Source: a virus
Lineage: Duplodnaviria > Caudoviricetes
Reading direction: 5' to 3' (one strand)
Length of the DNA stretch: 64,000 nt
Virus record (IMG/VR): IMGVR_UViG_3300021425_002620
Shown here: piece by piece, positions 37,604 to 51,730 of the stretch
How positions within the stretch are numbered: the stretch's first letter is position 1
Layout: each line of letters starts with the position of its first letter
Translations under genes and position numbers: made by a program
Notes under the pieces: model-generated
Told to the model about the DNA's origin: nothing
Databases searched by the model: none
Seen by the model: only the letters and a program-made list of their open reading frames with translations

Positions 37604-37719
37604 AGTCCTGCCTCCCTAGCTCTTGTTTCTAAAGTATCAACAACACGAGCTTGTTTAGATTTATTTTCTTGTCTTTCGAAGTCATCTGGATCGAAAGCAT
37701 TTTCAAGTCCCCCATGCAT
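37600..37719 (-). CDS. Possible small protein (39 aa) filling the gap after queE
   Basis: MHGGLENAFDPDDFERQENKSKQARVVDTLETRAREAGL; stop forms ATGA overlap with the next gene. Confidence 0.4.
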   Translation of the reverse strand: MHGGLENAFDPDDFERQENKSKQARVVDTLETRAREAGL

Positions 37720-38599
37720 TTCCGAATAAGGAGATGTGGAGTCTCGGGGTAAAACGCCATCCTTTTTCCATGCATAACTCTGCGACTTCTTGGACGTTGA
37801 GATTGTATTCTTCACTACGTCCGCCCAGCGGCATACAGTAGACCGGACATTCAATTCCGGCACTTTTATATTCGTCAACAGCTCTGCCAACTTCTGCAAC
37901 GTCAGTTGCATCAGCGACAACAAACTTAAGATAAATGTCACTACCATTAATGCCGAAATACTCACTAGCAATGTCAGGCTTAATAGCAGTATCCCAAGGT
38001 TCTCCGCTAACTGAAAGTTTTGGGGAACAACTCCAAGTGACTTCAAATCTGTCTTGATTGCTAAGATAATCTTTGAAATCTTCTCGTAACTTTTGAGTAG
38101 TATTTGTTTCAAATGTAACATTTTTCAAATCCTGCATCTTAGGATGCTCAAATAAATCGATGTAGAGTTTTTGCCAACCTAGCAAAGGCTCTCCACCTGT
38201 TAGTATTAAGTGAACATCTTGACCATTGTCCATTGTCCACTTGCCTTCTGGTGTAAGACTAAGTAAGTGTTCAACTACTTCGTCTACAGTTTTATCCATC
38301 ATAAACTTTTTAAATTCAGGATAGATACTTGCATAAGTATCACAACCTGTATGTATGATAGGTAAATCGTCAAACTTTTCAACAGTATTAATTATATTAC
38401 TATCGAGCAAATCTTTTACTTCAGGATTATGTTTGATACCTTGTTTTTGTTTCTCATCACGCATAGGCTCATCACGACCTAAACCAAAGTTCATGCAACG
38501 AAAGTTACAACCAAATGTTCTTAAGAACACACTAGGGACTCCAACAAACTTGCCTTCACCCTGTACACTATAAAATGCTTCTGAATAACGTAACTTCAT
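37703..38599 (-). CDS. queE: 7-carboxy-7-deazaguanine synthase (radical SAM)
   Basis: YSEAFYSVQGEG...PSVFLRTFGCNFRC...CDT, LTGGEP, ETN, SPKL, PRLHI; true start ATG 38599. Confidence 0.9.
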   Translation of the reverse strand: MKLRYSEAFYSVQGEGKFVGVPSVFLRTFGCNFRCMNFGLGRDEPMRDEKQKQGIKHNPEVKDLLDSNIINTVEKFDDLPIIHTGCDTYASIYPEFKKFMMDKTVDEVVEHLLSLTPEGKWTMDNGQDVHLILTGGEPLLGWQKLYIDLFEHPKMQDLKNVTFETNTTQKLREDFKDYLSNQDRFEVTWSCSPKLSVSGEPWDTAIKPDIASEYFGINGSDIYLKFVVADATDVAEVGRAVDEYKSAGIECPVYCMPLGGRSEEYNLNVQEVAELCMEKGWRFTPRLHISLFGNAWGT

Positions 38600-38600
38600 C

Positions 38601-39284
38601 TTAACACGCAAATTCCTGTTGTAATTTAATATTATCCATAAATTCTTTTTTAGTACCTGGATCAATCTTAAATGCACCTTTTAGCACAGTTGTCTGTGTA
38701 AGACTACTATGCGCCATAATACCGCGATTCTCACAACAACCGTGTGTTGCTTGAATGTATACACCTAAGTGATCTGCACCAGTTGCTCGTTGAATTTCAC
38801 GTGCAATATCATTTGCAAGTTCTTCTTGCAGTGTGCCACGTCTAGCACACCATTGTGCAATACGAGTATACTTTGAAAGACCAATTAATTTAGGACCTGC
38901 AATAATACCAATATATGCTACACCTGATACTGGTTGGTGATGATGTGAACACATACTCTTTAGTTCACTTCGAACTACAAGCATACCTTCATAGCGTTCG
39001 TCTGAATCATTTGGAAATGCTGTTGCACTTGGGATAGGGTCATAACGTCCTGCCATAATTTCATTAAAATACATTTTAGCAAGACGTTTTGCTGTACCTT
39101 TTGAATTAGGATCGTTATGTCGATCAATTAGTAATGTATCAAGAACTGTTTCAAATGCTGTTGTTGCTTCTTCAATTAGTTCTTCTTTATCACCTTTTTG
39201 TAGGACTTCTGAAATATTGTCGCCAGCCCAGTAGCGAATTTTTGCGTCTTCGAGACGTGCCTTAATTTGTTTGCTCTTACTCAT
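38601..39284 (-). CDS. folE: GTP cyclohydrolase I
   Basis: SMCSHH, GLSK..R, LQE, ATHGC...RG, T-fold motifs. Confidence 0.95.
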   Translation of the reverse strand: MSKSKQIKARLEDAKIRYWAGDNISEVLQKGDKEELIEEATTAFETVLDTLLIDRHNDPNSKGTAKRLAKMYFNEIMAGRYDPIPSATAFPNDSDERYEGMLVVRSELKSMCSHHHQPVSGVAYIGIIAGPKLIGLSKYTRIAQWCARRGTLQEELANDIAREIQRATGADHLGVYIQATHGCCENRGIMAHSSLTQTTVLKGAFKIDPGTKKEFMDNIKLQQEFAC

Positions 39285-39290
39285 TTTTAT

Positions 39291-39374
39291 CTCCGATGTT
39301 TAGGCAGTGGATTGCCGTGTATACTGCAAGCAATTCATTATATACAGTATACACTTATTTAGGTTTTTTGTCAA
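39291..39374 (-). promoter_or_regulatory. folE/queE promoter with nested TAAATA box and structured leader
   Basis: TTGACA (39374-39369), 17 bp, TATACT (39351-39346); TAAATA 39361-39356; 10-bp inverted repeat 39317-39326/39345-39354; GGCA-ATCCAC-TGCC hairpin 39316-39303 before CGGAG. Confidence 0.75.
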
Positions 39375-39376
39375 CC

Positions 39377-39535
39377 TTAAAGTTGTTTTCTTGCTGCTTT
39401 TTTGCGGGCTTCTTCTTTCTCCCACTTTTGGCGGTTTGTCCATTCAACTTTTTTCTTTTGATATTCTTCTTCGCTTAATGAATGCCAACCAATGCATTTA
39501 CCAGTTGGCGATCTTTTACAGCCACATAAAGCCAT
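39377..39535 (-). CDS. 52-aa CDGSH-like (3Cys-1His) iron-sulfur mini-protein, missing from the ORF track
   Basis: AGGAGA RBS; MALCGCKRSPTGKCIGWH followed by a charged helix. Confidence 0.65.
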   Translation of the reverse strand: MALCGCKRSPTGKCIGWHSLSEEEYQKKKVEWTNRQKWEKEEARKKAARKQL

Positions 39536-39547
39536 GATGTTCTCCTA

Positions 39548-39754: not shown

Positions 39755-39764
39755 TTTCCTTTCC

Positions 39765-40145
39765 TTAGTATTTTTGTTTAGATGGAATGACGCCCCTAAC
39801 GCCGCCTTTCGGATCTTCCATATCTCCATCACGACGGAAGATTAAATGTACATGGGGATACATGCATGTCTGTCCAGCACTTACTCCCATATTTATGCCT
39901 ATATTGTACCCGTCAACGTTGTTATCGGCTTCTATATTTTGTTGACCCATAGCAAGTGCAAATTTAAAACATTTAAGTATTTCGTCTTGTGTTGCTTCTT
40001 TTGGAACTACAAGTGTATGACCTTCTGTTACAGGGTAGATATCTTCATAAACAACAAAGTCACGAGTGTCTAACATAACATTAGTCCAAGGCGCACGACC
40101 TTCTTCTTGGGCTTTATCTAATGTATCAGTAGTCATAATCTGCAT
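39765..40145 (-). CDS. HIT family nucleotide hydrolase
   Basis: DIYPVTEGHTLVVPK, GYNIGIN.G.SAGQT..YPHVHLI. Confidence 0.9.
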   Translation of the reverse strand: MQIMTTDTLDKAQEEGRAPWTNVMLDTRDFVVYEDIYPVTEGHTLVVPKEATQDEILKCFKFALAMGQQNIEADNNVDGYNIGINMGVSAGQTCMYPHVHLIFRRDGDMEDPKGGVRGVIPSKQKY

Positions 40146-40395
40146 CGTCTTCAAAGTCTCCCATTTCAACTTTTGATGCTTCCCATAATTCTAATACAGT
40201 TCTTAGTCCATATTGCATAACGGAAAACTCGTTTAATTCTTCTTGAAATTTTCGAACTTCGTCAATTTGTTCTTTTGATAGATCGTCAATTAAATCAACA
40301 TTATAAAATTCACAAATATATTCTTCACAACTACGAAGGATATCGTCTTCAATATTAGTTTCCCATTTATGAATTCGATCCCAATTAAATGACAT
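40126..40395 (-). CDS. Hypothetical acidic protein
   Basis: 89-aa ORF, TAATG overlap. Confidence 0.65.
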   Translation of the reverse strand: MSFNWDRIHKWETNIEDDILRSCEEYICEFYNVDLIDDLSKEQIDEVRKFQEELNEFSVMQYGLRTVLELWEASKVEMGDFEDDADYDY

Positions 40396-40595
40396 TATTT
40401 TACCTCCAACAACGGTTCAATAGTAGAAGTATCGTGCCAATCATAAATTGATTCATCTTGGTACTGATGTCTTCTACTATGTGTTTCTTTAACAAACATA
40501 CCGTCTCTTTTGCGATAAACAGTATATACTTCTTTTATAATTCCTTCTTTTTCTGCTTGTACAGCATCTTTAAAAGGTCCTTCTTTTTGTGTCAT
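40395..40595 (-). CDS. Hypothetical protein
   Basis: ATG 40595 in ATGA overlap with the PRTase stop. Confidence 0.65.
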   Translation of the reverse strand: MTQKEGPFKDAVQAEKEGIIKEVYTVYRKRDGMFVKETHSRRHQYQDESIYDWHDTSTIEPLLEVK

Positions 40596-41155
40596 TGTCC
40601 TACATTCTCCCATGGATATACAAGCCAAACATCCTCTTCGGCTTTATTTACTTCGTCAACACTATAGTCTATAGTGCCTTTGAATTCGCTTGATAAATTA
40701 TCAGTAAGAACAGCAAAGCGAACATTACGATGCCACACAGTGTCCCATGCACTTGTTTCTTGCGGCAGACAACTACTAGGCCAATCTTCTTTGATCCAAT
40801 TTAATGTTGCACCTGTGTCATTAATATCGTCTACAATAAGAATGTTTTTGCGTTTGTTTAGATCCCATCGGCTTTTATAAATTTCACGTTCTTCTTCGTC
40901 AACGTAACCAAACGCATCATCTGCCATCCAACAGTTAGTTTCACATTCGCTATCATCGTCACGCAAACTAATTTTTAATGCTTCGCAACGTACACCTAAC
41001 ATATGTGATAAAATTGTAGCAGGTACGTTACCACCACGTGTAATACCTACTATATAATCAGGCCGCCAATTATCATTATACATTTGAAGAGCAATATTTA
41101 AACATGCTCGTTCTACATCTTGCCAACTATAATATTTTTTATTCACTTTTTGCAC
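40592..41155 (-). CDS. Type I phosphoribosyltransferase (purine PRTase-like)
   Basis: IVGITRGG and PRPP-binding ILIVDDINDTGAT. Confidence 0.9.
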   Translation of the reverse strand: MQKVNKKYYSWQDVERACLNIALQMYNDNWRPDYIVGITRGGNVPATILSHMLGVRCEALKISLRDDDSECETNCWMADDAFGYVDEEEREIYKSRWDLNKRKNILIVDDINDTGATLNWIKEDWPSSCLPQETSAWDTVWHRNVRFAVLTDNLSSEFKGTIDYSVDEVNKAEEDVWLVYPWENVGQ

Positions 41156-41654
41156 CTCTTGCTAAGTATTCTTCGTTATGTATCCAACGGTATCCTGCAT
41201 CAGTAATGTCTTCTACTTTTGATGCATGTACAAACCGCATAAAACCCCATTCCTTTTGTTTACGTCCCATAAAGAACAAACTCCAACAAGGAATTTCGTT
41301 ACCGTTAGAATCTTTTTGTAATTCTAACCAATGTAAATCATCTGGCTTACGAAAGCGAAAATGTCCAGGACCTCTCCAAACGCTAGTAGAACCTACAACA
41401 ATACCTTCTTTTGAAACAACAGGTACGTGTTCCCAATAACCGCCCTTAATAATAAAAGTAGCATAACTCCAAGGATGATCATGTAGTGTAGGTTCATCAC
41501 TCTTTAAAACTTTATGTAATGTGATATTAAACGGAAAATTTTTTCTATCTTTTAGAAATACATAAAACCTTATTAGATAAGGTTCTGTACTATCGCGTTC
41601 TGTAATTACTCGACGTCTGCCAAGTTTGTCCATAAGTTTAGAAAGGAATGTCAT
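41139..41654 (-). CDS. Cupin-like protein
   Basis: LHDHPW...IIKGGYWE ... HWLEL...WSLFF.G. Confidence 0.6.
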   Translation of the reverse strand: MTFLSKLMDKLGRRRVITERDSTEPYLIRFYVFLKDRKNFPFNITLHKVLKSDEPTLHDHPWSYATFIIKGGYWEHVPVVSKEGIVVGSTSVWRGPGHFRFRKPDDLHWLELQKDSNGNEIPCWSLFFMGRKQKEWGFMRFVHASKVEDITDAGYRWIHNEEYLARGAKSE

Positions 41655-41994
41655 CGTCTAAGCCTCTTTCTTTTTGTTTACCTTTATAGTCTTGTAATAC
41701 CATATCATACACGCTTTTAAAATTGCGCCATACTTTTTCTAGTGCTGGATACTCATTACACATATCTTCAACTTGATCTGGATTAATATTTTTAGTAGTA
41801 TTGATACTAAAAGTATAATCGGATGATCCAGTCCACAAACCATCGTCAATGATAAATGAACTATCAAATGATTTATCATCAACAGTGGTAATAGTAATAT
41901 TACTTAAATCAATATCGTCAGATGTAATATCAATAGCAGTACTTACAACACTGTCACCCATATCAAGCCATATATCTTTGTTGGATTTGCTCAT
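41638..41994 (-). CDS. Hypothetical acidic protein
   Basis: 118-aa ORF in co-oriented run. Confidence 0.65.
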   Translation of the reverse strand: MSKSNKDIWLDMGDSVVSTAIDITSDDIDLSNITITTVDDKSFDSSFIIDDGLWTGSSDYTFSINTTKNINPDQVEDMCNEYPALEKVWRNFKSVYDMVLQDYKGKQKERGLDDDIPF

Positions 41995-43018
41995 ACAATG
42001 CCTTTCCGCTAAAAAATTCTTTGTTTAAAAGAGTACGTTGCTTATCCAAACTTACAAGATAATCATCATAGTTTTCTATATAGTCTCTAATTTTATTAAC
42101 AATCTCACCTCGATATTGTCTATAAGAGTTCCAATCTTCTGTCCACTTACTTGGATATTTAAATTCCGGTAATGCCATTTCACCGTAGCTCAATCTATCA
42201 GGTACTACAGGAATAGCATCTACTAGTGCGCCTTCGTACCAACTAATACCAAGTGTTTCTTGTAAGTTAGCACTAAAAACTATTTTTGCTTCGCCTAATA
42301 GATTGTGATATTCGTTTTTAGTAAGTTCACGTTCTTGACAAACTACAAATTCGTAGTCAGGTAATTGTTCTGCTAGATCACGAAAAATATCTACTTGCTT
42401 CTCAGGTGCGATGCGATGCGGAAAGAGTATAAGATTTCGCTTGTCCATGCCTTTGTATTGATCTAAACTATTGCGTAGATACTCCATAGGCCATCCTACA
42501 CGATGTGTTTTATCGTCATCGATGTCTAAACTTTCTGCAAACAAGTCTATATGAAAGTCTGTAGCATAAAAGTTATCGTCATAGCACTCATACATACTTT
42601 GTTCAGCATGACGTACCCAAGGTTTATCACCTATTAGTCTACCTAAAAAATCATGAGGATCATAACTGCCAGCATGCCATAGACCGCCCACTCCAATGTC
42701 AACGCCCAGTAGCTCAGCCATGTAGCGAAGTTGGATAACAGTCGGGTTCCATGCATCTGTATATAGGAAATAATCTCCATCTTTAATTTGTCCTTTGCAA
42801 AACATTTCGCCTATAGTTTCTAATTGTTTAGACTTATAAACATTTGTACCGCCGAAGTTAAGAAAAGCCCCAGGTGTTGTAGCCTGAGGCGTTTCTCCAC
42901 CACTGATGACAGTTACATCTTCATTCGTAGCTCGTTGCAATTGACGTGGAAGATGTTCTTTCCACTGTTTTGTGTAACGTGTGTCAACTGCTTCAATGTC
43001 TACAATGTAAATAGTCAT
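41963..43018 (-). CDS. GT-B fold glycosyltransferase (GT4-like)
   Basis: ILFPHRIAPEKQ (RxxxEK) and NLQETLGISWYEGA...PVVP donor-binding motif; LWHAG in N-terminal lobe. Confidence 0.75.
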   Translation of the reverse strand: MTIYIVDIEAVDTRYTKQWKEHLPRQLQRATNEDVTVISGGETPQATTPGAFLNFGGTNVYKSKQLETIGEMFCKGQIKDGDYFLYTDAWNPTVIQLRYMAELLGVDIGVGGLWHAGSYDPHDFLGRLIGDKPWVRHAEQSMYECYDDNFYATDFHIDLFAESLDIDDDKTHRVGWPMEYLRNSLDQYKGMDKRNLILFPHRIAPEKQVDIFRDLAEQLPDYEFVVCQERELTKNEYHNLLGEAKIVFSANLQETLGISWYEGALVDAIPVVPDRLSYGEMALPEFKYPSKWTEDWNSYRQYRGEIVNKIRDYIENYDDYLVSLDKQRTLLNKEFFSGKALYEQIQQRYMA

Positions 43019-43224
43019 TAGTTTCTCCGTGAATTTATATTCCTACCAGCATTACGTGCTTTAGCACGTAAGTAGTTTTGGTGTTTTTGATACGCCTGCC
43101 AAACAGGTGCATCTTTCTTATAAAGGTCTGCTTCATTGAAGACCTTACCTTCAAAGCGACAGTAGTCGCGAAACTTGTCCAAGTCGTCAAATACCTTATT
43201 GACAGGAGGGAAGTTATTAGCCAT
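43018..43224 (-). CDS. Hypothetical protein
   Basis: 68-aa ORF, TAATG overlap with the glycosyltransferase. Confidence 0.65.
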   Translation of the reverse strand: MANNFPPVNKVFDDLDKFRDYCRFEGKVFNEADLYKKDAPVWQAYQKHQNYLRAKARNAGRNINSRRN

Positions 43225-43238
43225 TTTGAATTTCTCAC

Positions 43239-43691
43239 TTATGCCTTTGGATAAAAAATGGAACAGCCGTTTTCGTTGTCTTCAGCGACACTAATCTCTA
43301 CAAATCGGCCGGGGTACTTTGTAGAAATCTCTTGATACAAGTCATCTGCAATCATCTCACACGACTTGTGATTTAACTCTAGTACGCCTTCGACGTCATA
43401 GAGTCGTTGCATCCAGCGTTTAAACTGAATGAATTCAATATCGCGATCGTTATGAAATACTTCAATACGAACACGAAAGTGAAAGATATGACGATGCGGG
43501 ATACCAAGGAATGATACATCATCCCAATCGCCAGTTGCTAGTTTAGGATCAGTGTCAGCACCTGGGTACATATGTACACCTTCTTTGCTAAAGGTTACCC
43601 AAATACTACGTTCTGCGTTTTTCATTATGTCTTTCATACTTTCTTCTTTTAATCTACGACCCATATAGTTGTGATAGGATTCACGTTGCAT
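43239..43691 (-). CDS. QueD-like T-fold protein with LxxxHRHxF motif (DpdL-type)
   Basis: F..EG.H.YP...FLGIPHRHIFH.RV...DIEF...K...SCEMIA...ISVAEDNENG mirrors QueD layout with HRH for HGH and no active-site Cys before it. Confidence 0.7.
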   Translation of the reverse strand: MQRESYHNYMGRRLKEESMKDIMKNAERSIWVTFSKEGVHMYPGADTDPKLATGDWDDVSFLGIPHRHIFHFRVRIEVFHNDRDIEFIQFKRWMQRLYDVEGVLELNHKSCEMIADDLYQEISTKYPGRFVEISVAEDNENGCSIFYPKA

Positions 43692-43698
43692 TGTTTAT

Positions 43699-43727
43699 AG
43701 TATACTTTCATTTAATAACTTTGTCAA
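43699..43727 (-). promoter_or_regulatory. sigma70-type promoter, probably leaderless, inside the 3' end of the upstream gene
   Basis: TTGACA (43727-43722), 17 bp, TATACT (43704-43699), 7 nt, ATG 43691. Confidence 0.75.
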
Positions 43728-44241
43728 GGCCATATTTCGTCCAATCTGTGAATTTTTCTCTATCCATTAGATCGTGCAAACTATGACACCAAACACCTGG
43801 GTTAGTTGCCTTAAAGTCTACATCGTCAATTTTGACCATTGCGTTGTAATTCCACAGTTTTGTGTAAGGCAATGGAACACGGATTTGTGGAATAAAGTTA
43901 TCTCGTTCGTTAAAACCACCGTCATGAAAAGTATCACAAGCATCAAGTGGAATATCAAGTGTACAAAGAACGTCTTTGTCTAGGAAGTAATAGATCATTT
44001 CTTCCCACTTCTTGTAATAATCGTATTCACTTTTATTTGATGCCTTAGGATTAAAACTGTGATTAGCACCAAAGAAGATGTGTTCACACTGTTCTTTTTC
44101 GTACCAAAATTCAATTTCATCTACAGGTTGTACATCTGTAACAAACAATGTACGCATACCGTAAGCAGGAGTCTTTTCAACTTCTATACCAGTAAAGAAG
44201 ATGATATTATCTGCTTCGCCTGTTTCGTAATCTCTTTTCAT
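43708..44241 (-). CDS. Hypothetical protein within the deazaguanine cluster
   Basis: 177-aa ORF with conserved-looking G.EVE.TPA.G..TLFV, HIFFGANHSF, NPGVWCH. Confidence 0.75.
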   Translation of the reverse strand: MKRDYETGEADNIIFFTGIEVEKTPAYGMRTLFVTDVQPVDEIEFWYEKEQCEHIFFGANHSFNPKASNKSEYDYYKKWEEMIYYFLDKDVLCTLDIPLDACDTFHDGGFNERDNFIPQIRVPLPYTKLWNYNAMVKIDDVDFKATNPGVWCHSLHDLMDREKFTDWTKYGLDKVIK

Positions 44242-44242: not shown

Positions 44243-44518
44243 TCACACCTTATCGTGCATGTCAGGATTTGCTTTTAATTGTTCTATTTGATCTAAAATA
44301 GATTCTTTATGTTTTTGATAGATAGGAATATGTCTAGGGTCAGCAGCTTCTCTTGCACCACTTAACACTTTTTCACATTCTTCAAGAGCATCATTCAAAC
44401 TATCCATGCGTATTTCATACGGTGATCTTTCTTCCTGCATTGGAGGAATTTTACTAAACTGATATTCTTTATATGTATCAGCATCTGAATGATATTTTCG
44501 ATTTTTAAAATCACTCAT
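44243..44518 (-). CDS. Hypothetical protein
   Basis: 91-aa ORF, TAATG overlap. Confidence 0.65.
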   Translation of the reverse strand: MSDFKNRKYHSDADTYKEYQFSKIPPMQEERSPYEIRMDSLNDALEECEKVLSGAREAADPRHIPIYQKHKESILDQIEQLKANPDMHDKV

Positions 44519-44721
44519 TATCTTAACTCCTTTAGTTCACTTTCTAGCCTATGTATTTCATCTTTAAACCAAAGTTTTTTAGTTTTTAAGCGATTAATTT
44601 CTGAATCGCTTGCAAACTTATTATACAACTCTTTTACTTCGTCGTCAAGTTTTCTATGCTTTTGATAAAGCTCTTGTAGATAGTTTGCCAATTTATTGTG
44701 TTTCTCCGTAAAGTTGCTCAT
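44518..44721 (-). CDS. DUF465/YdcH-like small coiled-coil protein
   Basis: KHRKLDDEV...LKTKKLWFKDEI pattern. Confidence 0.65.
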   Translation of the reverse strand: MSNFTEKHNKLANYLQELYQKHRKLDDEVKELYNKFASDSEINRLKTKKLWFKDEIHRLESELKELR

Positions 44722-46252
44722 CTTCTAATACCTCTAGATTGTGTTCTTCTTCTTCGGTAAAGGTTCCATCTTCGTGTTCATCAGTTTCAGGCTCTGATAC
44801 TTCAAACAAAGCATTAAACTGTGTACTTGCATTAACAGTCTTTTTACCTACAGCACCCCTTGTACCGGGTATAGCCATCCAAAATTTGCTATATTGATCA
44901 ATAAGTGCTAGGGCTTCTTCTTTGTTGTCAATAGCAAATATTTCTTCCACAACATCTCTAAATAAAACCCGGTCAAAGCGTTCTTGGACAAGCATTGCTG
45001 GAATGACTCCATTGTCGTATTGTCTATTTGCTTCTTGTACTGCATTTACATGACTCCATACGTTATGACCCATTTGGATCGCATAAGAAAAACTATCCCA
45101 TGATGTTTTTCCTTCTTTACCAATTTTATTTAAGTCTCCTGGAGCATAAGTGCAAACGTCCGATACTTTGAGTTCGGCAGTGAGAGGACTGTCTTCAAAG
45201 TTTTTAAATATCCCATCTGATATAACAGCATCTCTAAAGAGACGGTTGTCTGTAGCATATTTTTTATCGTCAACACTCGGCACCATTCGATATGTCCATT
45301 TCGACCTATCCTCAGTTTCGTTTTGTATGTATATCTGTCCATTTGCGGTTGCGAGAAAAGGACTAGCACAATCAAAAGTAATAGTAAAGTTTTCATTATA
45401 ATTTTTTCGTACTGCACGTTGAATATCAGTAAGCAAACATGCCCACTCTAATTTACTTGTACCCAAGAAGTGCATAACATCATGTATGCCTTTTTGCAAC
45501 AAGTTATCAAAATGTAACGTAACAATGCGTTTAAGAACTAGATGTACATCGCACATGTTCTGTCCACCCATTGCCCAGCCATTAAAGTGATTGTCTGGAT
45601 ATTTTGCAGGATCGCAGTAATCTTTCATTTGTTCATACCAGTCATCTGCTTCTGCATGGTTTTCGCCTTGTAAAACATTTAAGAATTTACAAGCACCAGT
45701 TCTATGCTTCATCCAGTAATCATTATTAATACGTGTACCTTCTACAGCTTCTTGATAAGTGGTAATGCCAGTTGCTTCTTGTCCTGCAGGAGATCTACAA
45801 ACCCAAGCAGGAATATCAAGCACCATACCATAGTCCATGTATGCATCCATCCAGCGTAAAACTTGATCTCTCTTTTTTGCTGCTTTAGGACAGTTAGGAT
45901 TTTTCCAATCACCTTCCCAAACACCCTTACCAATCTGGAAACCACCTGAGTCTCCTAGTATCCAAGAGTTTTGTCTATCTCTATTACGCACCATATCTTC
46001 TTTGGGTGCGTGTTTGTTAATATCAAGTTCTGCATGTCCTGCAGAATACAATGTCCATTGATACTGGAATTGTCCTTCTTGCGTATTTAGATAGTTTAGA
46101 CTTTCAACACCATTTGTAAAGTTGCTAGGAATACGTGACTTATCTACATATTCGTCATAACGCTGTTTACCCACATAAGTTGCATAAAAGCCACTTAGTG
46201 CTGGTAAAAATCTAGCGTAATCATTTTGTGTTGCAGTTAAGTCTTTATTCAT
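44693..46252 (-). CDS. dpdA: TGT/DpdA-family deazaguanine transglycosylase
   Basis: DSGGFQ (TGT catalytic Asp motif), LDIP, GWAMGG, HFLG, TFDCASP (second catalytic Asp), GHN; Zn-binding cysteines absent as in DNA-acting DpdA. Confidence 0.75.
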   Translation of the reverse strand: MNKDLTATQNDYARFLPALSGFYATYVGKQRYDEYVDKSRIPSNFTNGVESLNYLNTQEGQFQYQWTLYSAGHAELDINKHAPKEDMVRNRDRQNSWILGDSGGFQIGKGVWEGDWKNPNCPKAAKKRDQVLRWMDAYMDYGMVLDIPAWVCRSPAGQEATGITTYQEAVEGTRINNDYWMKHRTGACKFLNVLQGENHAEADDWYEQMKDYCDPAKYPDNHFNGWAMGGQNMCDVHLVLKRIVTLHFDNLLQKGIHDVMHFLGTSKLEWACLLTDIQRAVRKNYNENFTITFDCASPFLATANGQIYIQNETEDRSKWTYRMVPSVDDKKYATDNRLFRDAVISDGIFKNFEDSPLTAELKVSDVCTYAPGDLNKIGKEGKTSWDSFSYAIQMGHNVWSHVNAVQEANRQYDNGVIPAMLVQERFDRVLFRDVVEEIFAIDNKEEALALIDQYSKFWMAIPGTRGAVGKKTVNASTQFNALFEVSEPETDEHEDGTFTEEEEHNLEVLEDEQLYGETQ

Positions 46253-46335: not shown

Positions 46336-46336
46336 A

Positions 46337-47059
46337 TTACTTACTCTGCGCTGGCAGGATATAGTCATACTTGGCCATACCGCTGTCTACACTAATCATC
46401 ATAGCACCTTGATCTGAAATACTCATAGTTAAATCGCCGTCTAACCCTAAGATTGCTTGTACTTGTGCAACTGGCCAACTCCAAGTATGTTGTAATGTAC
46501 CTTCAACGCCGTGTTGGAAAACAAATTCGCCTGCGTGTGTACTTGCATCACCAAAGCTGAATACTAAACTATTATCTTTAGTTGTTACATTAAATGTTGG
46601 CTCTTCTGAATGTGCCGCACTCATAAGTTTCATACGTCCAATACTAGCCATAGTTGGTGACACTGTAACATTCCATTGAGCACCTTTGAATTTAACAGTT
46701 TTTAATTTTTCATCAATAATTGCTTTGTTCATAAAGCGATAATCGTTTTGAAAGTCGCCTGCTGCGTTCTCAAAGTGAATGTGTGTTGGTACAACTTCGC
46801 CATTACGCTCTGCTGTAACAACTTCAATCTTTGCATTATCTTTGTATTCAGGATTTTTTAAATGTAATGCTAGTTTGTCTAAGTTAGGCATACCAAATGT
46901 AGCATTAGCAATAGTATGACTTGATGTAGCACTTAAAATTACACTGCGATCTTCTGCCATTGAGTCAATTTGAGTACCTTCGTCGTTAGATACTTTTACT
47001 AATGATAGGAAGCCTAGTGCGTGAGTATGTGCTACTACGTCTTGTAATATGTCTTTCAT
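46337..47059 (-). CDS. Probable DNA polymerase sliding clamp (gp45/PCNA-like)
   Basis: 240 aa, alternating alpha/beta pattern, D.DRSV and C-terminal KYDYILPA like clamp C-termini, close to polB. Confidence 0.55.
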   Translation of the reverse strand: MKDILQDVVAHTHALGFLSLVKVSNDEGTQIDSMAEDRSVILSATSSHTIANATFGMPNLDKLALHLKNPEYKDNAKIEVVTAERNGEVVPTHIHFENAAGDFQNDYRFMNKAIIDEKLKTVKFKGAQWNVTVSPTMASIGRMKLMSAAHSEEPTFNVTTKDNSLVFSFGDASTHAGEFVFQHGVEGTLQHTWSWPVAQVQAILGLDGDLTMSISDQGAMMISVDSGMAKYDYILPAQSK

Positions 47060-47826
47060 GATATAGTTTCTCCATTGAATAAGTTAATTATATTACTATT
47101 TTCTTCGTTTGTCAAGAACTTTTCTACTGTGTATTTAGGTTTAAAGCCTAAGGCCTTTAACTTTTCTGTATCGGCACATGTAAAGTTTCTCTCTCCTGGG
47201 GTATTTAGACGCACTGGAAGATCCGGTGCAAGGTCTTGGATTCGATGCGGAATCCCCGTTCCAATATCGATTGTACCTTTCAAGTAAGTTGCCTTAATTA
47301 AAAGTTCAACAGCATCTAATACATCTTGTAGATGAATAAAATCTCTGTAATGTTTGGTTGTATATTCTAGTGTACCGTCACGCAATCTCTTAAAAAACAT
47401 GTTATCTCTAGGACAGTTATCACTGTATACTGTATGAAATCTCATACCTAATGTATTAGGATAACGTTCTGCAAGTTCTTCTAAACAATACTTAGATGCC
47501 GCATAAGGATTTAAGTCAGGTTCGTATGCACTAGAACTACTAGCATACAATATACGTGTATCTTCGTAGGCTTCAAATAGTCTACGACTTGCTTCTATAT
47601 TATTCATCCAATATGATGCAGGATCTTTTAAACTTTCTCTTACTCCGCTTTTGCCTGCAAGATGGATTACAAGATCTATCTTTTTAGGCCAAGCAGTGTA
47701 GTGTAACAAATCACAGTCTGGACCATCTTTAATATCAATACCAAATACATTATGATTTGCTCTTAGCAATCTAAATTCTAAAGCACTTCCAATAAAGCCT
47801 TTGTGTCCTGTTAATAATATGTTCAT
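47056..47826 (-). CDS. NAD-dependent nucleotide-sugar epimerase/dehydratase
   Basis: ILLTGHKGFIG, IHLAG, YASSSS, YAASK, RFHTVY, RDFIH. Confidence 0.9.
   Translation of the reverse strand: MNILLTGHKGFIGSALEFRLLRANHNVFGIDIKDGPDCDLLHYTAWPKKIDLVIHLAGKSGVRESLKDPASYWMNNIEASRRLFEAYEDTRILYASSSSAYEPDLNPYAASKYCLEELAERYPNTLGMRFHTVYSDNCPRDNMFFKRLRDGTLEYTTKHYRDFIHLQDVLDAVELLIKATYLKGTIDIGTGIPHRIQDLAPDLPVRLNTPGERNFTCADTEKLKALGFKPKYTVEKFLTNEENSNIINLFNGETIS
47087..47115 (-). promoter_or_regulatory. Consensus sigma70-type promoter for the clamp-dpdA segment, inside the epimerase 3' end
   Basis: TTGACA (47115-47110), 17 bp, TATAAT (47092-47087), GGAG RBS. Confidence 0.8.
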
Positions 47827-48530
47827 ATTATATTCTTAAGTATATCCCATGTATCTTTATAATCTTTTACATGAAATAACTCGCCGCCTTTCTCTTTTAC
47901 AACTCTTGACAATGTATAATCATTGCCGTTTTCGTCCATTCTATCTCCAAAGAAGTAAATTTTTGCATCTTCATCGCTAAAATGGCTTATAATTTGTGCT
48001 TTATCTTTACCACGTTGGATAATGTCAATTCCTGTTTCACCACCAACTCTACATTCAATTTGAGGAAATAAATCATTAATAGCATTAGCAATTCGAATAC
48101 GTTCTTGATTTTCTCTATCCCATTTTACATATTCAGCTCTTTGATCTAAATTTGCATTTCTGCCAACTACACTAAAATTACAAAGTCCTGTTCTGTGTTC
48201 AAAGTGTAAGCCTGTTCTTAACGGGAATTTGCTTTCAGTTAATAGAAAAGATAGTGCTTCGTGTACAACTTCTGGCAATACCCAATTACTTTTGTAAATA
48301 TTATTATTACCTTGCCAAACATCATTACCTAAACAGTTATAAACTGTATGACAAGAATTATATATTTCAGGTGTTAGTTGTTCTACTGTTTTTTCTTTGT
48401 CACTTCCAGTAACCAAGTATACTAAATTATGTCGACAAAAAGGTAAAAAATATGAATAGAATCTTTCATCTATACGTTGTCTACTTGGTGTAAGTGTACC
48501 ATCTACATCAAATATAAAATACTGTTTCAT
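47823..48530 (-). CDS. HAD-superfamily phosphomannomutase (eukaryotic PMM-type)
   Basis: FDVDGTLTPSRQ, VTGSD, FEHR.G..NFS..GR, GG..GIDI...G.DK, FFGD.M..NGND. Confidence 0.85.
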   Translation of the reverse strand: MKQYFIFDVDGTLTPSRQRIDERFYSYFLPFCRHNLVYLVTGSDKEKTVEQLTPEIYNSCHTVYNCLGNDVWQGNNNIYKSNWVLPEVVHEALSFLLTESKFPLRTGLHFEHRTGLCNFSVVGRNANLDQRAEYVKWDRENQERIRIANAINDLFPQIECRVGGETGIDIIQRGKDKAQIISHFSDEDAKIYFFGDRMDENGNDYTLSRVVKEKGGELFHVKDYKDTWDILKNII

Positions 48531-48943
48531 TTTGTTTCTCTCTTTGTTACACGTGATCTTAAATCGCTTGAACTAAAACGATGATCTCTTTTATTAAAAA
48601 ACAATTCAATATCTCTTTGTCGGCATATATCCTTGCCTGTAAAATCCATATCTCTGTATTCCTCTCCTAGTATTCGTATATCAATATGATACATTTGTAG
48701 TATGTCTTCTAGGTCTTGTTCAGTGCCATATGGAATAATTTCATCTACGTATCCAACTGCTTTTAGTTGTGTATAACGTTCTACAATAGTTTGTATTGGA
48801 GGATTTTTTGACGGTCTATCTACACTAGGATCCATTTGCAATCCTACCATTAAATAGTCACATTGATCTTTTGCGTCACGCAACATTTGTACATGTCCTG
48901 CGTGTAGTAAATCAAAAGTTGAACAAGTAAACCCTACTTTCAT
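48527..48943 (-). CDS. Cytidylyltransferase family protein (TagD/RfaE-II-like)
   Basis: TFDLLHAGH HIGH motif, ER...L.AV.YVD, LGEEY, R.H.FSSS. Confidence 0.9.
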   Translation of the reverse strand: MKVGFTCSTFDLLHAGHVQMLRDAKDQCDYLMVGLQMDPSVDRPSKNPPIQTIVERYTQLKAVGYVDEIIPYGTEQDLEDILQMYHIDIRILGEEYRDMDFTGKDICRQRDIELFFNKRDHRFSSSDLRSRVTKRETK

Positions 48944-49056
48944 TAGTCGTCCTCTTCGTCTTCCCTATTTCTAATAGCTTCTATTATATCCATAAGCGAT
49001 TGTAGCTCGTCAGCATCTCGAACAGTATCAAGTTCTAACTCAATCTTTATTTTCAT
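48943..49056 (-). CDS. 37-aa acidic small protein, missing from the ORF track
   Basis: MKIKIELELDTVRDADELQSLMDIIEAIRNREDEEDD; GGAG RBS, TAATG overlap with the next gene. Confidence 0.65.
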   Translation of the reverse strand: MKIKIELELDTVRDADELQSLMDIIEAIRNREDEEDD

Positions 49057-49057
49057 A

Positions 49058-51730
49058 TCAATCTCCAAAGTCAAACAAACTACTAAATGTGTTGTGTTGT
49101 TTAGTATCTTCTAGATCATAATTCAACACACCAATCAAATTATCAAGTTTGTTATCAATAATTGTTTCTGCCATTGCTGCATCATCAAATGGCAATTCTT
49201 TAAACCACTCAGGTAATCTTAGCTCATCTGTTGGATAAGCAACACTTGTATAACCTAAGGGATTCTGTTTTAATTTACAAACAATAACTTTCATACCGTC
49301 AACGATTTCTTGTGAGTATTTGTCACCGTTCATACGTTTTAGTGTATTCCAATTAATGCTTGCCCGCACGTGGCCCGGCATATTTGCCTTGCCTTGTTTT
49401 TGTTCAAGACGCTGATAGTGTCCAATCTTGTTTGCACGTTTAGGCGAACCTTTTTCCCAACCTGGCATCTCTTGAAACTCTTTACGGAACTGTGTAATAC
49501 GTTCTAGTACTTCAGATTCTTCTGCATCTGTAAGCACCATTAAAAGTACTTCGCTTAAAAACTTTTGCATAAACACAGGAGTGTCTGACCTACGTAAGTC
49601 TAAGCCCATTGCCTTTACTTTACCAGGCTTACCGTCTTGATCTGTTCTAAAACCTTCATTGTCAACTACTAGTGCCGCATATCGCTTCTTAGTAATATAA
49701 AGACCACTCTGAGCAACAATTTCTCTACCTGCCGCAATAACGTCACTTCTGCTCTTTGGACAATGAAATGCTTGCAACATAAACTTTTCAAATGTTGTAT
49801 TTGCTTGTTCACAAACTTGATCATATAGTGCAATACATTTTTCAGTATTCCATTCAAGTTTACCAGTTCCTACGTCTTCCTGTAGTACAGGCCATGCACT
49901 AAAGTAAACAGAGTCAGTGTCGCCATATATTACTGCTTTACCGGTATGATCGTAATCACCTGTAATTACATTGTTAACTTCAGCACTCATATGTTTAACA
50001 ATTTGTCTACCAGTTAGTGTAGTTGACTGACCAATACGTTTATCGAAAAATCTACAGCCCGGATTCAAAATAGCACCATACAAGCTGTTCAAGTTAATCT
50101 TTTTAACTAACTGTCGCTTGTCCCAGTATTCTATTTCTGCATCAAGATTTGCGTCTTTTGCTTTTTTAAGTTTCTTTTGTAGTTCTTTACGTTCTGCGTA
50201 CCAGCGTTTAAGAATACCCGGAATAACACCTTCAAACTCTGTAGTAAAGATTGTACCATTTGCACTAAGCATCCAAGGCATCTGACTGTCAAATATAAGT
50301 TGATAAATCTCTGCACCACTTAGTACATCTGATCTACCATCCTCCCAATCAACAGTTAGCGCAACATCTTTACGTTGCTCCATTACTGCTTCATATTCTT
50401 CAGTTGAAAATCGTCCTTCCCAACTACCTGCGAAGCTCTTCTTCTTAAGAGTCATATCTTCGTGTACACGAGATTCAGTTATTTCAGGACGTATTTGTCC
50501 AACAATAGTTTCCGGTGCCATATTTAAAGCACGAATCACTGAAGGATATAGTGAGTTTAAGTCCATTGAACCAATCCACTTGTGCAGTCCTTTTTTTGGA
50601 AATGCAACATATGCTCCAGCAGCCTGTGTATTTTCTGTGTCGTCACGTTTGGGGCGATTAGGAACCTGTAGTCCTCTGTTATGTGCTTCGTTAATAATAC
50701 CTTGCTCTGTAACGGCAACAGCACCCATTGTTGTTTGAAGCATCACAGTATTTTCGTGTGCAATACTGTTACTAAGATCAATAAATCGTAGTTTCTTGTC
50801 TAGTTTGTCCAGTAGTGCAGTATCCTGAATGTTATATTCAATAAACTTACGGAAGTCGTTGTTATATAACTGATCCAGCGTACCTTCATATGGCACTTTG
50901 TTTTCGCCTACTTCAATCTCACCAATCGCATCTAATCGATATGAGTGACGTTCTTCATATGTATACTTACGATACAGTTCTAATGAGTCTAAGTGTACAC
51001 GACCTACTAAATCAAATGTAACTGCTTGCTTCCCATATTTTTCGTATTCACGCTTCTTAGGCAGTTGTCCCCATAGGCAAAACCGCCTTGTGTCATCTTT
51101 ACTGAGTACACGACTAGTTCTGTTTACAGTATACGGAATATCATAACCTTCACTGTTCCAACCACTTAGTATGTCAGCATCTTCAATTAGCGTTAAGAAG
51201 GTATCAATCATATCACCTTCACGTTCAAACAACATTACATTATCAATGCCTTCTAATTCTTTTTGTGCCTGATCCATAGTTAGTGTTTTAGGAGGAACAG
51301 CAAGACACACCATTGTTTCTAACCACTGCAAATACACAGAGATAGATGTAATTGGCATAAAAGGATCGCTTGGATCAGCAAAGCCACGCTCTGGATCAAA
51401 GTCAGTCTCAATATCGAAAAATGCAATATTTAGTTTAGGTGCATCTTGGTTAAGATAGTTTTCACTAAGACATTGAAAAAGTGGATTGATGTCGCTTTCG
51501 AATAAGTTCTTGCCTTTGTTAATAGCAACTTCTTTTCGAAAGTCTTTTGTGTTTTTACAAACAATACGTGATAGAGGATCTCCGTAAATACTTTTGTATT
51601 TGCCTCGAGGATCTTCGTAATAAAATGTATATTTGGCAGGATATTCTGTAAAGTGTCTTTTGCCATCGCGTCTTTCTACAACACGAATAATATCCTGATC
51701 GCGATCGAACATCGCATCTACGTATGGCAT
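49058..51730 (-). CDS. DNA polymerase family B (T4 gp43-like)
   Basis: ExoI FFDIETD, ExoII GWNS..YD, motif A DLNSLYPS, motif B KINLNSLYG, motif C YGDTDS. Confidence 0.97.
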   Translation of the reverse strand: MPYVDAMFDRDQDIIRVVERRDGKRHFTEYPAKYTFYYEDPRGKYKSIYGDPLSRIVCKNTKDFRKEVAINKGKNLFESDINPLFQCLSENYLNQDAPKLNIAFFDIETDFDPERGFADPSDPFMPITSISVYLQWLETMVCLAVPPKTLTMDQAQKELEGIDNVMLFEREGDMIDTFLTLIEDADILSGWNSEGYDIPYTVNRTSRVLSKDDTRRFCLWGQLPKKREYEKYGKQAVTFDLVGRVHLDSLELYRKYTYEERHSYRLDAIGEIEVGENKVPYEGTLDQLYNNDFRKFIEYNIQDTALLDKLDKKLRFIDLSNSIAHENTVMLQTTMGAVAVTEQGIINEAHNRGLQVPNRPKRDDTENTQAAGAYVAFPKKGLHKWIGSMDLNSLYPSVIRALNMAPETIVGQIRPEITESRVHEDMTLKKKSFAGSWEGRFSTEEYEAVMEQRKDVALTVDWEDGRSDVLSGAEIYQLIFDSQMPWMLSANGTIFTTEFEGVIPGILKRWYAERKELQKKLKKAKDANLDAEIEYWDKRQLVKKINLNSLYGAILNPGCRFFDKRIGQSTTLTGRQIVKHMSAEVNNVITGDYDHTGKAVIYGDTDSVYFSAWPVLQEDVGTGKLEWNTEKCIALYDQVCEQANTTFEKFMLQAFHCPKSRSDVIAAGREIVAQSGLYITKKRYAALVVDNEGFRTDQDGKPGKVKAMGLDLRRSDTPVFMQKFLSEVLLMVLTDAEESEVLERITQFRKEFQEMPGWEKGSPKRANKIGHYQRLEQKQGKANMPGHVRASINWNTLKRMNGDKYSQEIVDGMKVIVCKLKQNPLGYTSVAYPTDELRLPEWFKELPFDDAAMAETIIDNKLDNLIGVLNYDLEDTKQHNTFSSLFDFGD

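Follow-up and report, generated by a model that had tools for sequence, protein, structure and literature searches.

A candidate deazaguanine glycosyltransferase in the predicted DpdL-type DNA modification cluster of a marine jumbo phage

Might a phage attach a sugar to the 7-deazaguanine in its own DNA? The question is raised by a 64,000-nt stretch of caudoviral DNA (IMG/VR record IMGVR_UViG_3300021425_002620; hereafter the window), in which an initial annotation had listed, in one orientation, genes for replication, 7-deazaguanine synthesis, sugar-nucleotide metabolism and a glycosyltransferase (GT), and had proposed that the sugar genes make an NDP-sugar that the GT attaches to deazaguanine or to a second modified base. 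The gene list is borne out by profile, fold and motif support, with every module gene from polB to QueE on the minus strand (Table 1), and strong comparative genomics partly supports the interpretation. The literature that we searched describes no glycosylated 7-deazaguanine in DNA, in agreement with the annotation. Our preferred reading, to which we assign a probability of roughly 0.55 on the basis of sequence comparison, is a QueC-less, DpdL-type 7-deazaguanine DNA modification system with a dedicated GT4 glycosyltransferase that would act on the deazaguanine.

Table 1. Features of the window module, listed from the upstream to the downstream boundary. Fractions give occurrence among loci of the window's clade.
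Feature	Position	Strand	Evidence
Family B DNA polymerase (polB), upstream module boundary	49058..51730	-	PF00136 3.6e-38; PF03104 2.2e-18
HIGH-type nucleotidyltransferase, RfaE-domain-II/TagD-like	48527..48943	-	PF01467 4.1e-14; phrog_7878 4.6e-35
Eukaryotic-type phosphomannomutase/HAD-IIB (PMM)	47823..48530	-	PF03332 1e-23; phrog_29277 3.3e-86
Short SDR nucleotide-sugar epimerase/dehydratase	47056..47826	-	PF01370 1e-24; phrog_540 1e-44
Probable gp45-like sliding clamp	46337..47059	-	Atlas features 0.95-0.96 to sliding-clamp/gp45 clusters
DpdA-like DNA guanine transglycosylase, TGT fold, long C-terminal extension	44693..46252	-	AF2 fold and motifs
67-aa small conserved ORF	44518..44721	-	37/60; DUF465 match on a relative
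177-aa conserved protein	43708..44241	-	59/60
DpdL, QueD paralogue, proposed CDG decarboxylase	43239..43691	-	LGIPHRHIF
68-aa small basic ORF, between dpdL and GT	43018..43224	-	50/60
GT4-fold (GT-B, retaining-type) glycosyltransferase, candidate deazaguanine glycosyltransferase	41963..43018	-	AF2 fold and motifs
Cupin-like 171-aa protein (HDHPW), accessory	41139..41654	-	phrog_4786 1.2e-33; 42/58
Purine (xanthine/guanine-type) PRTase	40592..41155	-	PF00156 5.1e-14; NF006613 5.8e-14; 57/58
HIT-family nucleotide hydrolase/transferase, accessory	39765..40169	-	PF01230 2.9e-9; 45/58
52-aa Cys-rich ORF (C-G-C-x7-C-I-G-W-H), upstream of folE	39377..39535	-	Translation only
GTP cyclohydrolase I (FolE)	38601..39284	-	PF01227 2e-37; 47/48
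QueE (CDG synthase)	37703..38599 (ORF 37703-38677)	-	phrog_2076 1.4e-50; 48/48
Small cupin, weak mannose-6-P-isomerase likeness	36867..37202	-	PF07883 5.5e-10; PF01050 0.0024
RNaseH/FEN 5'-3' exonuclease, downstream module boundary	35831..36814	-	PF02739 2.3e-19

A replication module related to that of phage PA5oct

The module is best explained as serving the replication of a jumbo phage, akin to Pseudomonas phage PA5oct, that abounds in marine and estuarine waters. Its polB is 49-52% identical to those of PA5oct and Phosso, clamp homologues occupy the same position in both phages (the Phosso copy is annotated as a clamp; the window ORF has no Pfam match), and the RNaseH/FEN exonuclease holds the same position in PA5oct. 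The gene order, shared by 80 related IMG/VR loci, is not due to chance.

The 177-aa protein, for which Pfam, PHROG and NCBIfam gave no match, has a homologue immediately upstream of dpdA in ACP17 (E 5e-10). The gene initially called a cupin does encode a cupin-like protein of 171 aa, but its sole match is a PHROG named 'cysteine dioxygenase', and the clusters of PA5oct, ACP17 and Phosso hold no homologue. The short Cys-rich ORF had been listed as an Fe-S mini-protein, a putative assignment.

A predicted QueC-less pathway to 7-deazaguanine

Phage deazaguanine systems carry a transglycosylase of the TGT superfamily (DpdA), and fold and motif evidence points to one here. All top 50 PDB fold matches of the DpdA-like protein (AF2 model, pLDDT 87.8) are tRNA-guanine transglycosylases; within D101-S-G-G-F-Q106, G103 is nearly invariant and the other five residues fully so, as is D294 (FDCAS). 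The protein occurs in 60/60 clade loci and is 36% identical to EST35_0316 of PA5oct. It has no match in Pfam (including PF01702) or NCBIfam, and published DpdA3 likewise lacks PF01702.

The gene first described as encoding a QueD-like HRH protein is indeed a QueD paralogue, but its identity is corrected to DpdL, a proposed CDG decarboxylase yielding 7-deazaguanine with the signature LxxxHRHxF (PMC10516641). Its LGIPHRHIF fits this signature, which is kept in 66 of 66 distinct homologues examined; the protein is 51-65% identical to those of Phosso, PA5oct and ACP17 and is present in all 60 clade loci. A Pfam scan of the window ORFs downstream of position 28000 gave no QueC, and none was found in three complete related genomes (PA5oct, ACP17, Phosso). 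Bearing LxxxHRHxF instead of CxxxHGH, and lacking QueC, the locus appears to belong to the QueC-less DpdL branch, a pathway type that predicts unsubstituted 7-deazaguanine. Canonical QueD (CxxxHGH or PF01242-like) was not found in the window or in a 72%-complete relative, G001; PA5oct, ACP17 and Phosso do encode QueD, and PA5oct has two QueD genes away from the cluster. QueE likely starts at M27 (38599), adjoining the folE stop, and the second and third cysteines of its CX3C-X50-C cluster motif are separated by a 50-residue insert.

A divergent GT4-fold glycosyltransferase

The GT has no Pfam match at E 0.01, and so none to the GT4 models PF00534 and PF13439; two distant family members give only faint PF00534 matches. 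Foldseek nevertheless aligned its AF2 model (pLDDT 96.5) with retaining GT-B enzymes of family GT4, among them BshA, MshA, glycogen synthase and PimA, with TM 0.6-0.7 to BshA, MshA, GlgM and PimA. Within an EX7E motif, E254 is nearly invariant and E262, eight residues on, invariant; R202 and K207 are nearly invariant. We take these four to be donor-site residues, as in other GT4 enzymes. By predicted structure and motifs, the protein is a GT4 member of divergent sequence.

No specific likeness to the T4-type alpha- or beta-glucosyltransferases was seen beyond the GT-B fold, and the 50 best fold matches, whether PDB or viral, name no T4 enzyme, some viral entries being nameless. A shared hydroxymethylpyrimidine acceptor made by a ThyA-like enzyme was ruled out because no ThyA-family (thymidylate-synthase) gene was found in ACP17 or in the clade contigs, which are incomplete.

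Linkage of the glycosyltransferase to DpdL across phages

The GT gene adjoins DpdL or lies within ~2 kb of it in at least 11 phage lineages, and does so in 60/60 loci of the window's marine clade. The arrangement holds in PA5oct-like Pseudomonas jumbo phages, with DpdA, GT and DpdL adjacent in PA5oct, and the order is DpdA-GT-DpdL-QueE in ACP17, DpdL-GT in Phosso, GT-DpdA-DpdL-QueE in Xanthomonas phage X1 and DpdA-DpdL-GT in cyanophage BUCT-ZZ01. Four unrelated metagenomic phages repeat the pairing: in L097, L099 and L101 the end of DpdL touches or overruns the beginning of GT, and DpdL lies 1.3 kb upstream of GT in L102. Members of the GT subfamily lie almost exclusively in loci that carry DpdL. 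DpdL also occurs without them, the GT being absent genome-wide from the DpdL phages phiST, RHph_I1_18, Ahp1 and Bakedbeans; of these, phiST alone has proven plain dDG (PMC10516641). PA5oct DNA, for its part, carries a modified G; it withstands cutting at restriction sites that contain G, and END nucleases that sense hypermodification attack it (PMC12191111). Together, these comparisons support a functional tie between the GT and the deazaguanine genes, and its pairing with them in at least 10 other lineages points to a DNA deazaguanine bearing a sugar, chemically undescribed so far.

It is conceivable, though unlikely in our view, that the DNA holds only plain dDG or dCDG, as in phiST, and that the GT and sugar genes were collected in the early/replication region while acting elsewhere, be it on the envelope of the host, on a protein of the virion or on some other small molecule. 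A pathway of the DpdL type has been published as yielding dDG without a GT (PMC10516641), the sugar cassette varies and can be dispensed with, and small molecules, lipids and glycans are the usual substrates of GT4 enzymes. Distant GT relatives, moreover, accompany GlmS and a deacetylase in the absence of deazaguanine genes, as in PhiXhv-15. Abutting or overlapping DpdL-GT pairs nevertheless recur in phages of differing polymerase, size and morphotype, and thus are not chance co-locations; the near-restriction of the GT subfamily to DpdL loci, against the freer distribution of DpdL, argues in the same direction. Furthermore, ACP17 dpdL and dpdA alone were reported to give no dDG in E. coli, and thus do not suffice for it.

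The same abutting or overlapping genes would also suit a GT that acts before insertion, on an intermediate or free base (a pterin that the PTPS-like DpdL forms from H2NTP, CDG or 7-deazaguanine), with DpdA then inserting a glycosylated base or with the glycoside, for example that of a pterin, remaining soluble. Some TGT enzymes do take bulky bases such as queuine. GT4-type enzymes also glycosylate free 7-deazapurines in huimycin and dapiramicin (preprint 10.64898/2026.04.15.718813), and a tetrahydrobiopterin glucosyltransferase is among the fold matches of the GT (rank 37). That match, however, is no better than hundreds of others to GT4 enzymes, and a soluble pterin glycoside would not account for why DpdA and QueE are always present; we regard action off the DNA as rather improbable.

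An accessory sugar-nucleotide cassette

Three genes between polB and the clamp make up the window's sugar cassette. The first appears to encode a sugar- or polyol-phosphate adenylyl- or cytidylyltransferase: phrog_7878 is named 'heptose 1-phosphate adenylyltransferase', and the NCBIfam matches to RfaE domain II and TagD (TIGR02199, 5e-19; TIGR01518, 1e-16) both fall below cut-off, at 68.5 bits against 181.5 for RfaE domain II. The best NCBIfam match of the SDR protein is ADP-glyceromanno-heptose 6-epimerase, likewise at 51 against a cut-off of 275. No kinase or SIS isomerase was found, a PMM-type mutase and a cupin standing in their places. The small cupin at the downstream end of the module has homologues between polB and the nucleotidyltransferase in five loci (L006, L024, L030, L034, L039).

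Sugar genes fill this one variable slot in 46 of 51 clade loci, in 10 combinations, and are missing from the other five; none are at the clusters of the cultured relatives inspected (PA5oct, ACP17, Phosso, X1). L099 carries a different set, RmlC-like and UDP-GlcNAc 2-epimerase-like, beside its FolE-DpdL-GT-QueE cluster. Because the cassette varies within the clade and is missing from the cultured relatives' clusters, it is judged from gene content to be accessory rather than core, and at most an accessory donor supply.

Proposed pathway

In our preferred reading, that of a glycosylated deazaguanine, FolE would convert GTP to H2NTP, QueD from the host or from elsewhere in the phage genome would yield CPH4, QueE would form CDG, and DpdL, through chemistry proposed in the literature, would turn CDG into 7-deazaguanine or a close derivative. 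The TGT-fold DpdA would exchange guanine in phage DNA for the deazaguanine after replication, and the GT4 enzyme would transfer a sugar from an NDP-sugar to it, either once the base is in DNA or while it is still free. In the window clade, the variable cassette (nucleotidyltransferase, accompanied or not by mutase, epimerase and cupin) may supply or diversify the donor, apparently a manno- or heptose-type sugar activated with ADP or CDP.

Less readily explained is the acceptor. Position C7 of unsubstituted 7-deazaguanine bears neither a hydroxyl nor an exocyclic amine, and hence offers no obvious O or N handle; a GT4 enzyme would therefore have to use N2, O6 or a carbon, modifications for which the searched literature offers no precedent in DNA. 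A hydroxyl might come from the cupin-like protein, but 16 of 58 clade loci lack it, as do the clusters of PA5oct, ACP17 and Phosso.

The purine PRTase may return excised guanine to GMP and on to GTP for FolE. It could alternatively make a deazapurine nucleotide, to be processed by HIT and other proteins and incorporated by the phage polymerase, with DpdA and GT secondary; in the toyocamycin pathway, a PRTase acts on preQ0. This nucleotide-level route draws support from the retention of the PRTase in 57/58 loci of the window clade and in the clusters of PA5oct, BUCT-ZZ01 and L103. The enzyme is missing, however, from the ACP17, Phosso and X1 clusters and was not found in the whole ACP17 and Phosso genomes, and all phages with deazaguanine DNA studied so far encode DpdA, which is held to act post-replication. 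Salvage of excised guanine is the simpler account, and we consider nucleotide-level incorporation very improbable.

Comparison with known systems

The closest chemically defined parallel is Cellulophaga phage phiST (Cui et al. 2023, PMC10516641), which likewise combines FolE and QueE with an LxxxHRHxF DpdL, lacks QueC, places its cluster beside the polymerase and encodes a very divergent TGT-fold DpdA (DpdA3), found by profile and fold methods only. It differs in having no GT homologue genome-wide and no PRTase or sugar genes in its annotated cluster; moreover, the window lacks QueD, its DpdL is only ~31% identical to the phiST protein, and its DpdA, like that of PA5oct, falls in a subgroup of 500-550 aa.

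PA5oct (Wroclawvirus) offers a syntenic polB-clamp-DpdA-GT-DpdL-PRTase-QueE-RNaseH arrangement, with proteins 36-60% identical to those of the window. Unlike the window, it lacks a sugar cassette between polB and clamp, a homing endonuclease interrupts its polB, and both of its QueD genes lie elsewhere in the genome. Its modification is known from restriction resistance alone, and the preprint describing it (PMC12191111) is silent on the adjacent GT.

Sugars on 7-deazaguanine-derived bases are otherwise known, outside DNA, from mannosyl- and galactosyl-queuosine in tRNA, where the acceptor is the cyclopentenediol, and from huimycin and dapiramicin, where it is the free deazapurine base; the huimycin GT, HuiG, falls in GT4-type Pfam families.

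In a final parallel, T-even phages also encode a GT-B enzyme in a replication and nucleotide-metabolism region. The T4 acceptor, hmC, is made at the nucleotide level, whereas that of the window would be a purine analogue introduced by base exchange; the window GT is GT4-like, with no specific T4 match, and ACP17 lacks a ThyA-family hydroxymethylase. Yet just as T-even enzymes glucosylate hmC, the window GT would decorate a non-canonical base, and in both groups the identity of the sugar appears to differ among relatives.

Gene content of the module

We propose, with a probability of about 0.5, that the window phage and its relatives replace guanine in DNA with a glycosylated 7-deazaguanine through a paired DpdL (a QueD paralogue) and GT4-fold glycosyltransferase (GT) acting with a DpdA-like enzyme, and that a swappable cassette varies the sugar between close relatives. 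Every gene of the stretch runs in a single direction on the minus strand, and profile searches bore out the initial annotation for polB, the nucleotidyltransferase, the phosphomannomutase, the epimerase, the phosphoribosyltransferase (PRTase), the HIT protein, folE and queE. The QueE-like enzyme more likely starts at M27 (38599), adjoining the folE stop. Upstream of folE, a 52-aa ORF (window 39377-39535) translates as C-G-C-x7-C-I-G-W-H followed by a very basic tail.

Genes of the module in the window, with the basis of each assignment
Feature	Position	Strand	Basis
polB	49058-51730	-	profile search
Cytidylyltransferase-like HIGH nucleotidyltransferase	48527-48943	-	profile search
Eukaryotic-type phosphomannomutase, HAD-IIB class	47823-48530	-	profile search
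Short SDR epimerase	47056-47826	-	profile search
Probable gp45-like sliding clamp, 240 aa	46337-47059	-	Atlas features 0.95-0.96; Phosso homologue annotated clamp
DpdA-like protein, 519 aa	44693-46252	-	fold model and motifs
DpdL, 150 aa	43239-43691	-	LGIPHRHIF signature
Glycosyltransferase (GT), 351 aa	41963-43018	-	fold model and motifs
Purine-type phosphoribosyltransferase (PRTase)	40592-41155	-	profile search
HIT protein	39765-40169	-	profile search
GTP cyclohydrolase I (FolE)	38601-39284	-	profile search
QueE-like radical SAM enzyme	37703-38677	-	profile search
FEN/RNaseH, closes module	35831-36814	-	profile search

Fold and motif assignments

Neither Pfam nor NCBIfam returned a hit for the GT, the DpdA-like protein, DpdL or a 177-aa protein. 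The DpdA-like protein likewise had no PHROG or PDB-sequence match, with nothing useful from either a single-sequence or a profile search of the PDB, and PF01702 fails to detect it, as is also the case for the published DpdA3. Its AlphaFold model (pLDDT 87.8) nevertheless bore out the earlier call of a dpdA-like transglycosylase, the 50 best PDB matches all being tRNA-guanine transglycosylase (TGT). The protein carries the motifs GDSGGFQ and FDCAS; across 44 homologues D101, S102, G104, Q106 and D294 never vary, and G103 hardly does. Fold matches and invariant motif residues together therefore place the modelled protein in the TGT superfamily as a DpdA-like enzyme.

The protein initially described as QueD-like does contain the HRH motif, and its signature, LGIPHRHIF, identifies it as DpdL and not as a canonical QueD. 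DpdL is the proposed decarboxylase that turns CDG into 7-deazaguanine, with the CxxxHGH of QueD replaced by LxxxHRHxF (Cui et al. 2023, PMC10516641), a signature kept in all 66 distinct DpdL homologues that we collected. Two other phages carry DpdL in different settings. In Vibrio phage Bakedbeans, DpdL forms the C-terminal third of the 383-aa gp176 (L107 5254-6405), whose N-terminal ~270 aa might be a clue to a partner activity; in Rhizobium phage RHph_I1_18 (L008 8408-9232), which lacks the GT, a macro-domain ('Appr-1-p processing') protein follows DpdL and may represent a different elaboration of the DpdL branch. In the window, the 177-aa protein lies between dpdA and dpdL (43708-44241). 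It recurs in 59 of 60 loci of the window clade, and in the Acidovorax T4-like phage ACP17 a homologue lies immediately upstream of dpdA. The protein could thus belong to the modification machinery as an additional component; its best score in an Atlas search was only 0.75.

A single-sequence search of the PDB with the GT returned nothing useful, and its fold model (pLDDT 96.5) upheld the GT-B assignment. Among experimental and predicted structures it most resembles GT4 enzymes of the retaining type (BshA, MshA, glycogen synthase, GlgM, PimA and PglA), and neither the T4 alpha- nor beta-glucosyltransferase was among the named top fold matches. The GT keeps an EX7E motif (E254, E262) and an R202/K207 pair, which we take to be the NDP-sugar site of GT4 enzymes. 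Service to a hydroxymethylpyrimidine is not supported, as ACP17 is without a ThyA-family gene and none was found in the incomplete clade contigs. That the acceptor is instead a free base or a pterin strikes us as distinctly unlikely. The GT and DpdA are both acidic, and isoelectric point does not separate a DNA-binding from a small-molecule enzyme. A predicted GT-DpdL complex scored 0.00, which speaks neither for nor against binding.

Linkage of the GT to DpdL

In the window clade, 80 IMG/VR loci whose GTs are 69-89% identical share the order polB - [sugar slot] - clamp - DpdA - (h67) - h177 - DpdL - (h68) - GT - (h118) - (cupin) - PRTase - (HIT) - h94 - FolE - QueE - h134 - RNaseH, where h-numbers denote proteins by length and parentheses mark genes not in every locus. 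Counting only loci with covered flanks, DpdA and DpdL were each present in 60 of 60, PRTase in 57 of 58, QueE in 48 of 48 and FolE in 47 of 48. The pairing recurs in cultured phages: PA5oct-like phages (DpdA-GT-DpdL, then PRTase and QueE), ACP17 (DpdA-GT-DpdL-QueE), Sinorhizobium phage Phosso (DpdL-GT-x-FolE...QueE), Xanthomonas phage X1 (FolE...GT-DpdA-DpdL-QueE) and cyanophage BUCT-ZZ01 (QueE-XGPRT-x-QueD-FolE-x-DpdA-DpdL-GT, the GT being recognized by HMM only, E 5.5e-42); in BUDD and Burkholderia BCSR5, GT and DpdL lie 1.5-2.8 kb apart.

Of six remote members of the GT family (28-38% identity to the window GT), five lay on contigs long enough to judge. In three of these (L097, L099, L101) the end of dpdL touches or runs into the beginning of the GT gene, and DpdL lies 1.3 kb upstream in a fourth (L102). 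Because these contigs span such different phages, among them one of ~52 kb that encodes ParB, terminase and portal proteins and another with a family A polymerase, the GT-DpdL pairing crosses very different phage types. The fifth, L103, shows no DpdL in 7 kb; its stretch 845-6333 holds, beside the GT, a second, Pfam-recognisable GT4 together with PRTase, NUDIX, ATP-grasp (PurT/PurK-like) and AIR-synthase-like proteins, and it may be a more elaborate variant involving a disaccharide or an amide. DpdA at L099, L101 and L102 is unproven: when hhalign set a window-type DpdA profile against the GT neighbours (365, 310 and 378 aa, respectively), only the L099 neighbour aligned a 'FDSGAF' stretch to DSGGFQ. 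PhiXhv-type Xanthomonas phages carry a GT relative (27% identity, partial match) with GlmS and an LmbE-type deacetylase, a different context, and the deazaguanine link therefore holds for the GT subfamily and not for the whole family.

Genome-wide profile searches found DpdL without the GT in Cellulophaga phage phiST, RHph_I1_18, Ahp1 and Bakedbeans, and plain dDG, the unadorned 7-deazaguanine nucleoside, has been measured in phiST (PMC10516641). The DpdL-GT association thus runs one way, the pattern expected if the GT acts downstream of DpdL. We consider it unlikely that the DNA holds plain dDG while the GT acts on something other than DNA; such a reading agrees with the published DpdL-type pathway, which gives dDG rather than preQ0, and it has to be set beside the one-way association and the outcome in E. 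coli, where ACP17 dpdL plus dpdA yielded no dDG. A glycosylated product, if true, would account for that failure.

A variable sugar cassette

Of the genes whose co-occurrence with dpdA the initial annotation put forward as a check, the GT lies near it in every clade locus with covered flanks; the sugar genes are variable. At least one of nucleotidyltransferase, mutase, epimerase and a small cupin weakly resembling mannose-6-P isomerase occupies the polB-clamp slot in 46 of 51 clade loci, in ten combinations, and polB directly adjoins the clamp in three. The window's own small cupin stands apart from the cassette, at 36867-37202. Nucleotidyltransferase and epimerase most resemble HldE domain II and HldD of ADP-heptose synthesis, with scores far below equivalog cut-offs; phrog_7878 also supports the HldE-type likeness. 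No cassette genes occur in the clusters of PA5oct, ACP17, Phosso or X1, and L099 has RmlC-like and UDP-GlcNAc 2-epimerase-like proteins beside its cluster, a pair unlike the clade's. Given this variable make-up and its absence from the clusters of cultured relatives, the cassette has the look of an auxiliary set of donor genes that is swapped rapidly, which fits sugar diversification; that it serves the GT is inferred. For the other cupin, encoded between the GT and the PRTase, a general role as obligatory hydroxylase partner that makes the acceptor for the GT was rejected, since this cupin is missing in 16 of 58 clade loci and in the PA5oct, ACP17 and Phosso clusters.

A QueC-less pathway and its proposed product

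QueC was absent among the window ORFs scanned with Pfam, which lie beyond position 28000, and from the complete PA5oct, ACP17 and Phosso genomes; the window pathway is thus of the QueC-less DpdL type. Canonical QueD was absent from the 64-kb window and was not seen in G001, a 256-kb, 72%-complete relative, and is present elsewhere in the genomes of PA5oct, ACP17 and Phosso. In the window clade, QueD or its product CPH4 would come either from an unsampled part of the genome or from the host. The window QueE (37703-38599) reads CX3C at its radical-SAM motif, then a 50-residue insert, then C (CDT); the insert is 37-39 residues in PA5oct, X1 and BUCT-ZZ01 and 7 in phiST, and the canonical CX3CX2C is kept in ACP17 and Phosso. 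The Burkholderia QueE variant, CX14CX2C, has its insert between the first and second cysteines, whereas that of the window lies between the second and third.

Taken whole, the mechanism, to which we give slightly better than even odds, would begin with CDG made by FolE, QueE and a QueD encoded elsewhere. From CDG, DpdL would make 7-deazaguanine or a closely related base, DpdA would exchange guanine in DNA for this base, the GT4 enzyme would add a sugar to the deazaguanine, either on DNA or as the free base, and the PRTase would recycle the released guanine. We see only a slim chance of a nucleotide-level route through the PRTase.

Distribution and significance

Megablast of the 14-kb region found no match among GenBank phages. 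At the protein level and in synteny, the window is related to the Pseudomonas jumbo phage PA5oct and to Phosso (polB 49-52%, clamp 32-37% and RNaseH 45-50% identical). An identical GT protein is present on contigs of up to 253 kb, the GT has >8000 close homologues in metagenomes, and the stretch or part of it occurs in runs from at least 17 studies, the metagenomes being of seawater, marine and estuary origin, with two from wetlands. Elsewhere, the window encodes a 387-aa protein (28853-30016) that has an Mtd_N domain (2.6e-10), named for the N-terminal part of the major tropism determinant of a Bordetella phage, and may be a receptor-binding protein or a diversity-generating retroelement target; a MoxR/AAA ATPase adjoining a DUF2201 metallopeptidase-like protein with a VWA-like domain (31560-34071); and a full-length ClpB/Hsp104-like chaperone with two AAA domains (61832-63985).

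END nucleases, which recognise hypermodified DNA, restrict PA5oct, and a modified G in GA or GG was inferred by the authors; the GT adjoining the PA5oct gene goes undiscussed in that preprint (PMC12191111), and 'glycosyl' is absent from the main text of Cui et al. (PMC10516641). The GT adjoins dpdL in ACP17 as well. If true, our proposal would identify PA5oct's modified G, the base sensed by END nucleases, and the modification would be widespread: its carriers would include the abundant jumbo phages of the marine clade, T4-like cyanophages, phages that infect Acidovorax, Xanthomonas or Sinorhizobium, and the PA5oct-like Pseudomonas phages, which are of interest for therapy. The proposal matters for phage therapy, in which PA5oct-like phages meet modification-dependent defences, for the bias of sequencing against jumbo phages from the sea and for enzymes that could glycosylate DNA site-specifically, and cultured carriers exist in PA5oct, ACP17, X1, BUCT-ZZ01 and Phosso.

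A non-exhaustive literature search found no glycosylated deazaguanine in phage DNA. To our knowledge, none of the eight 7-deazaguanine derivatives known in phage DNA bears a sugar, and every DNA base so far known to be glycosylated is a pyrimidine. The separate components (modification of DNA with deazaguanines, GT4 enzymes and the proposed DpdL) are all of known kinds; the conserved DpdL-GT pairing and its implied product appear undescribed. If true, the product would be, as far as we know, the first sugar-bearing purine analogue in any DNA, a C-glycosylated nucleobase should the sugar sit at C7 or C8, and a new chemical class of DNA hypermodification.
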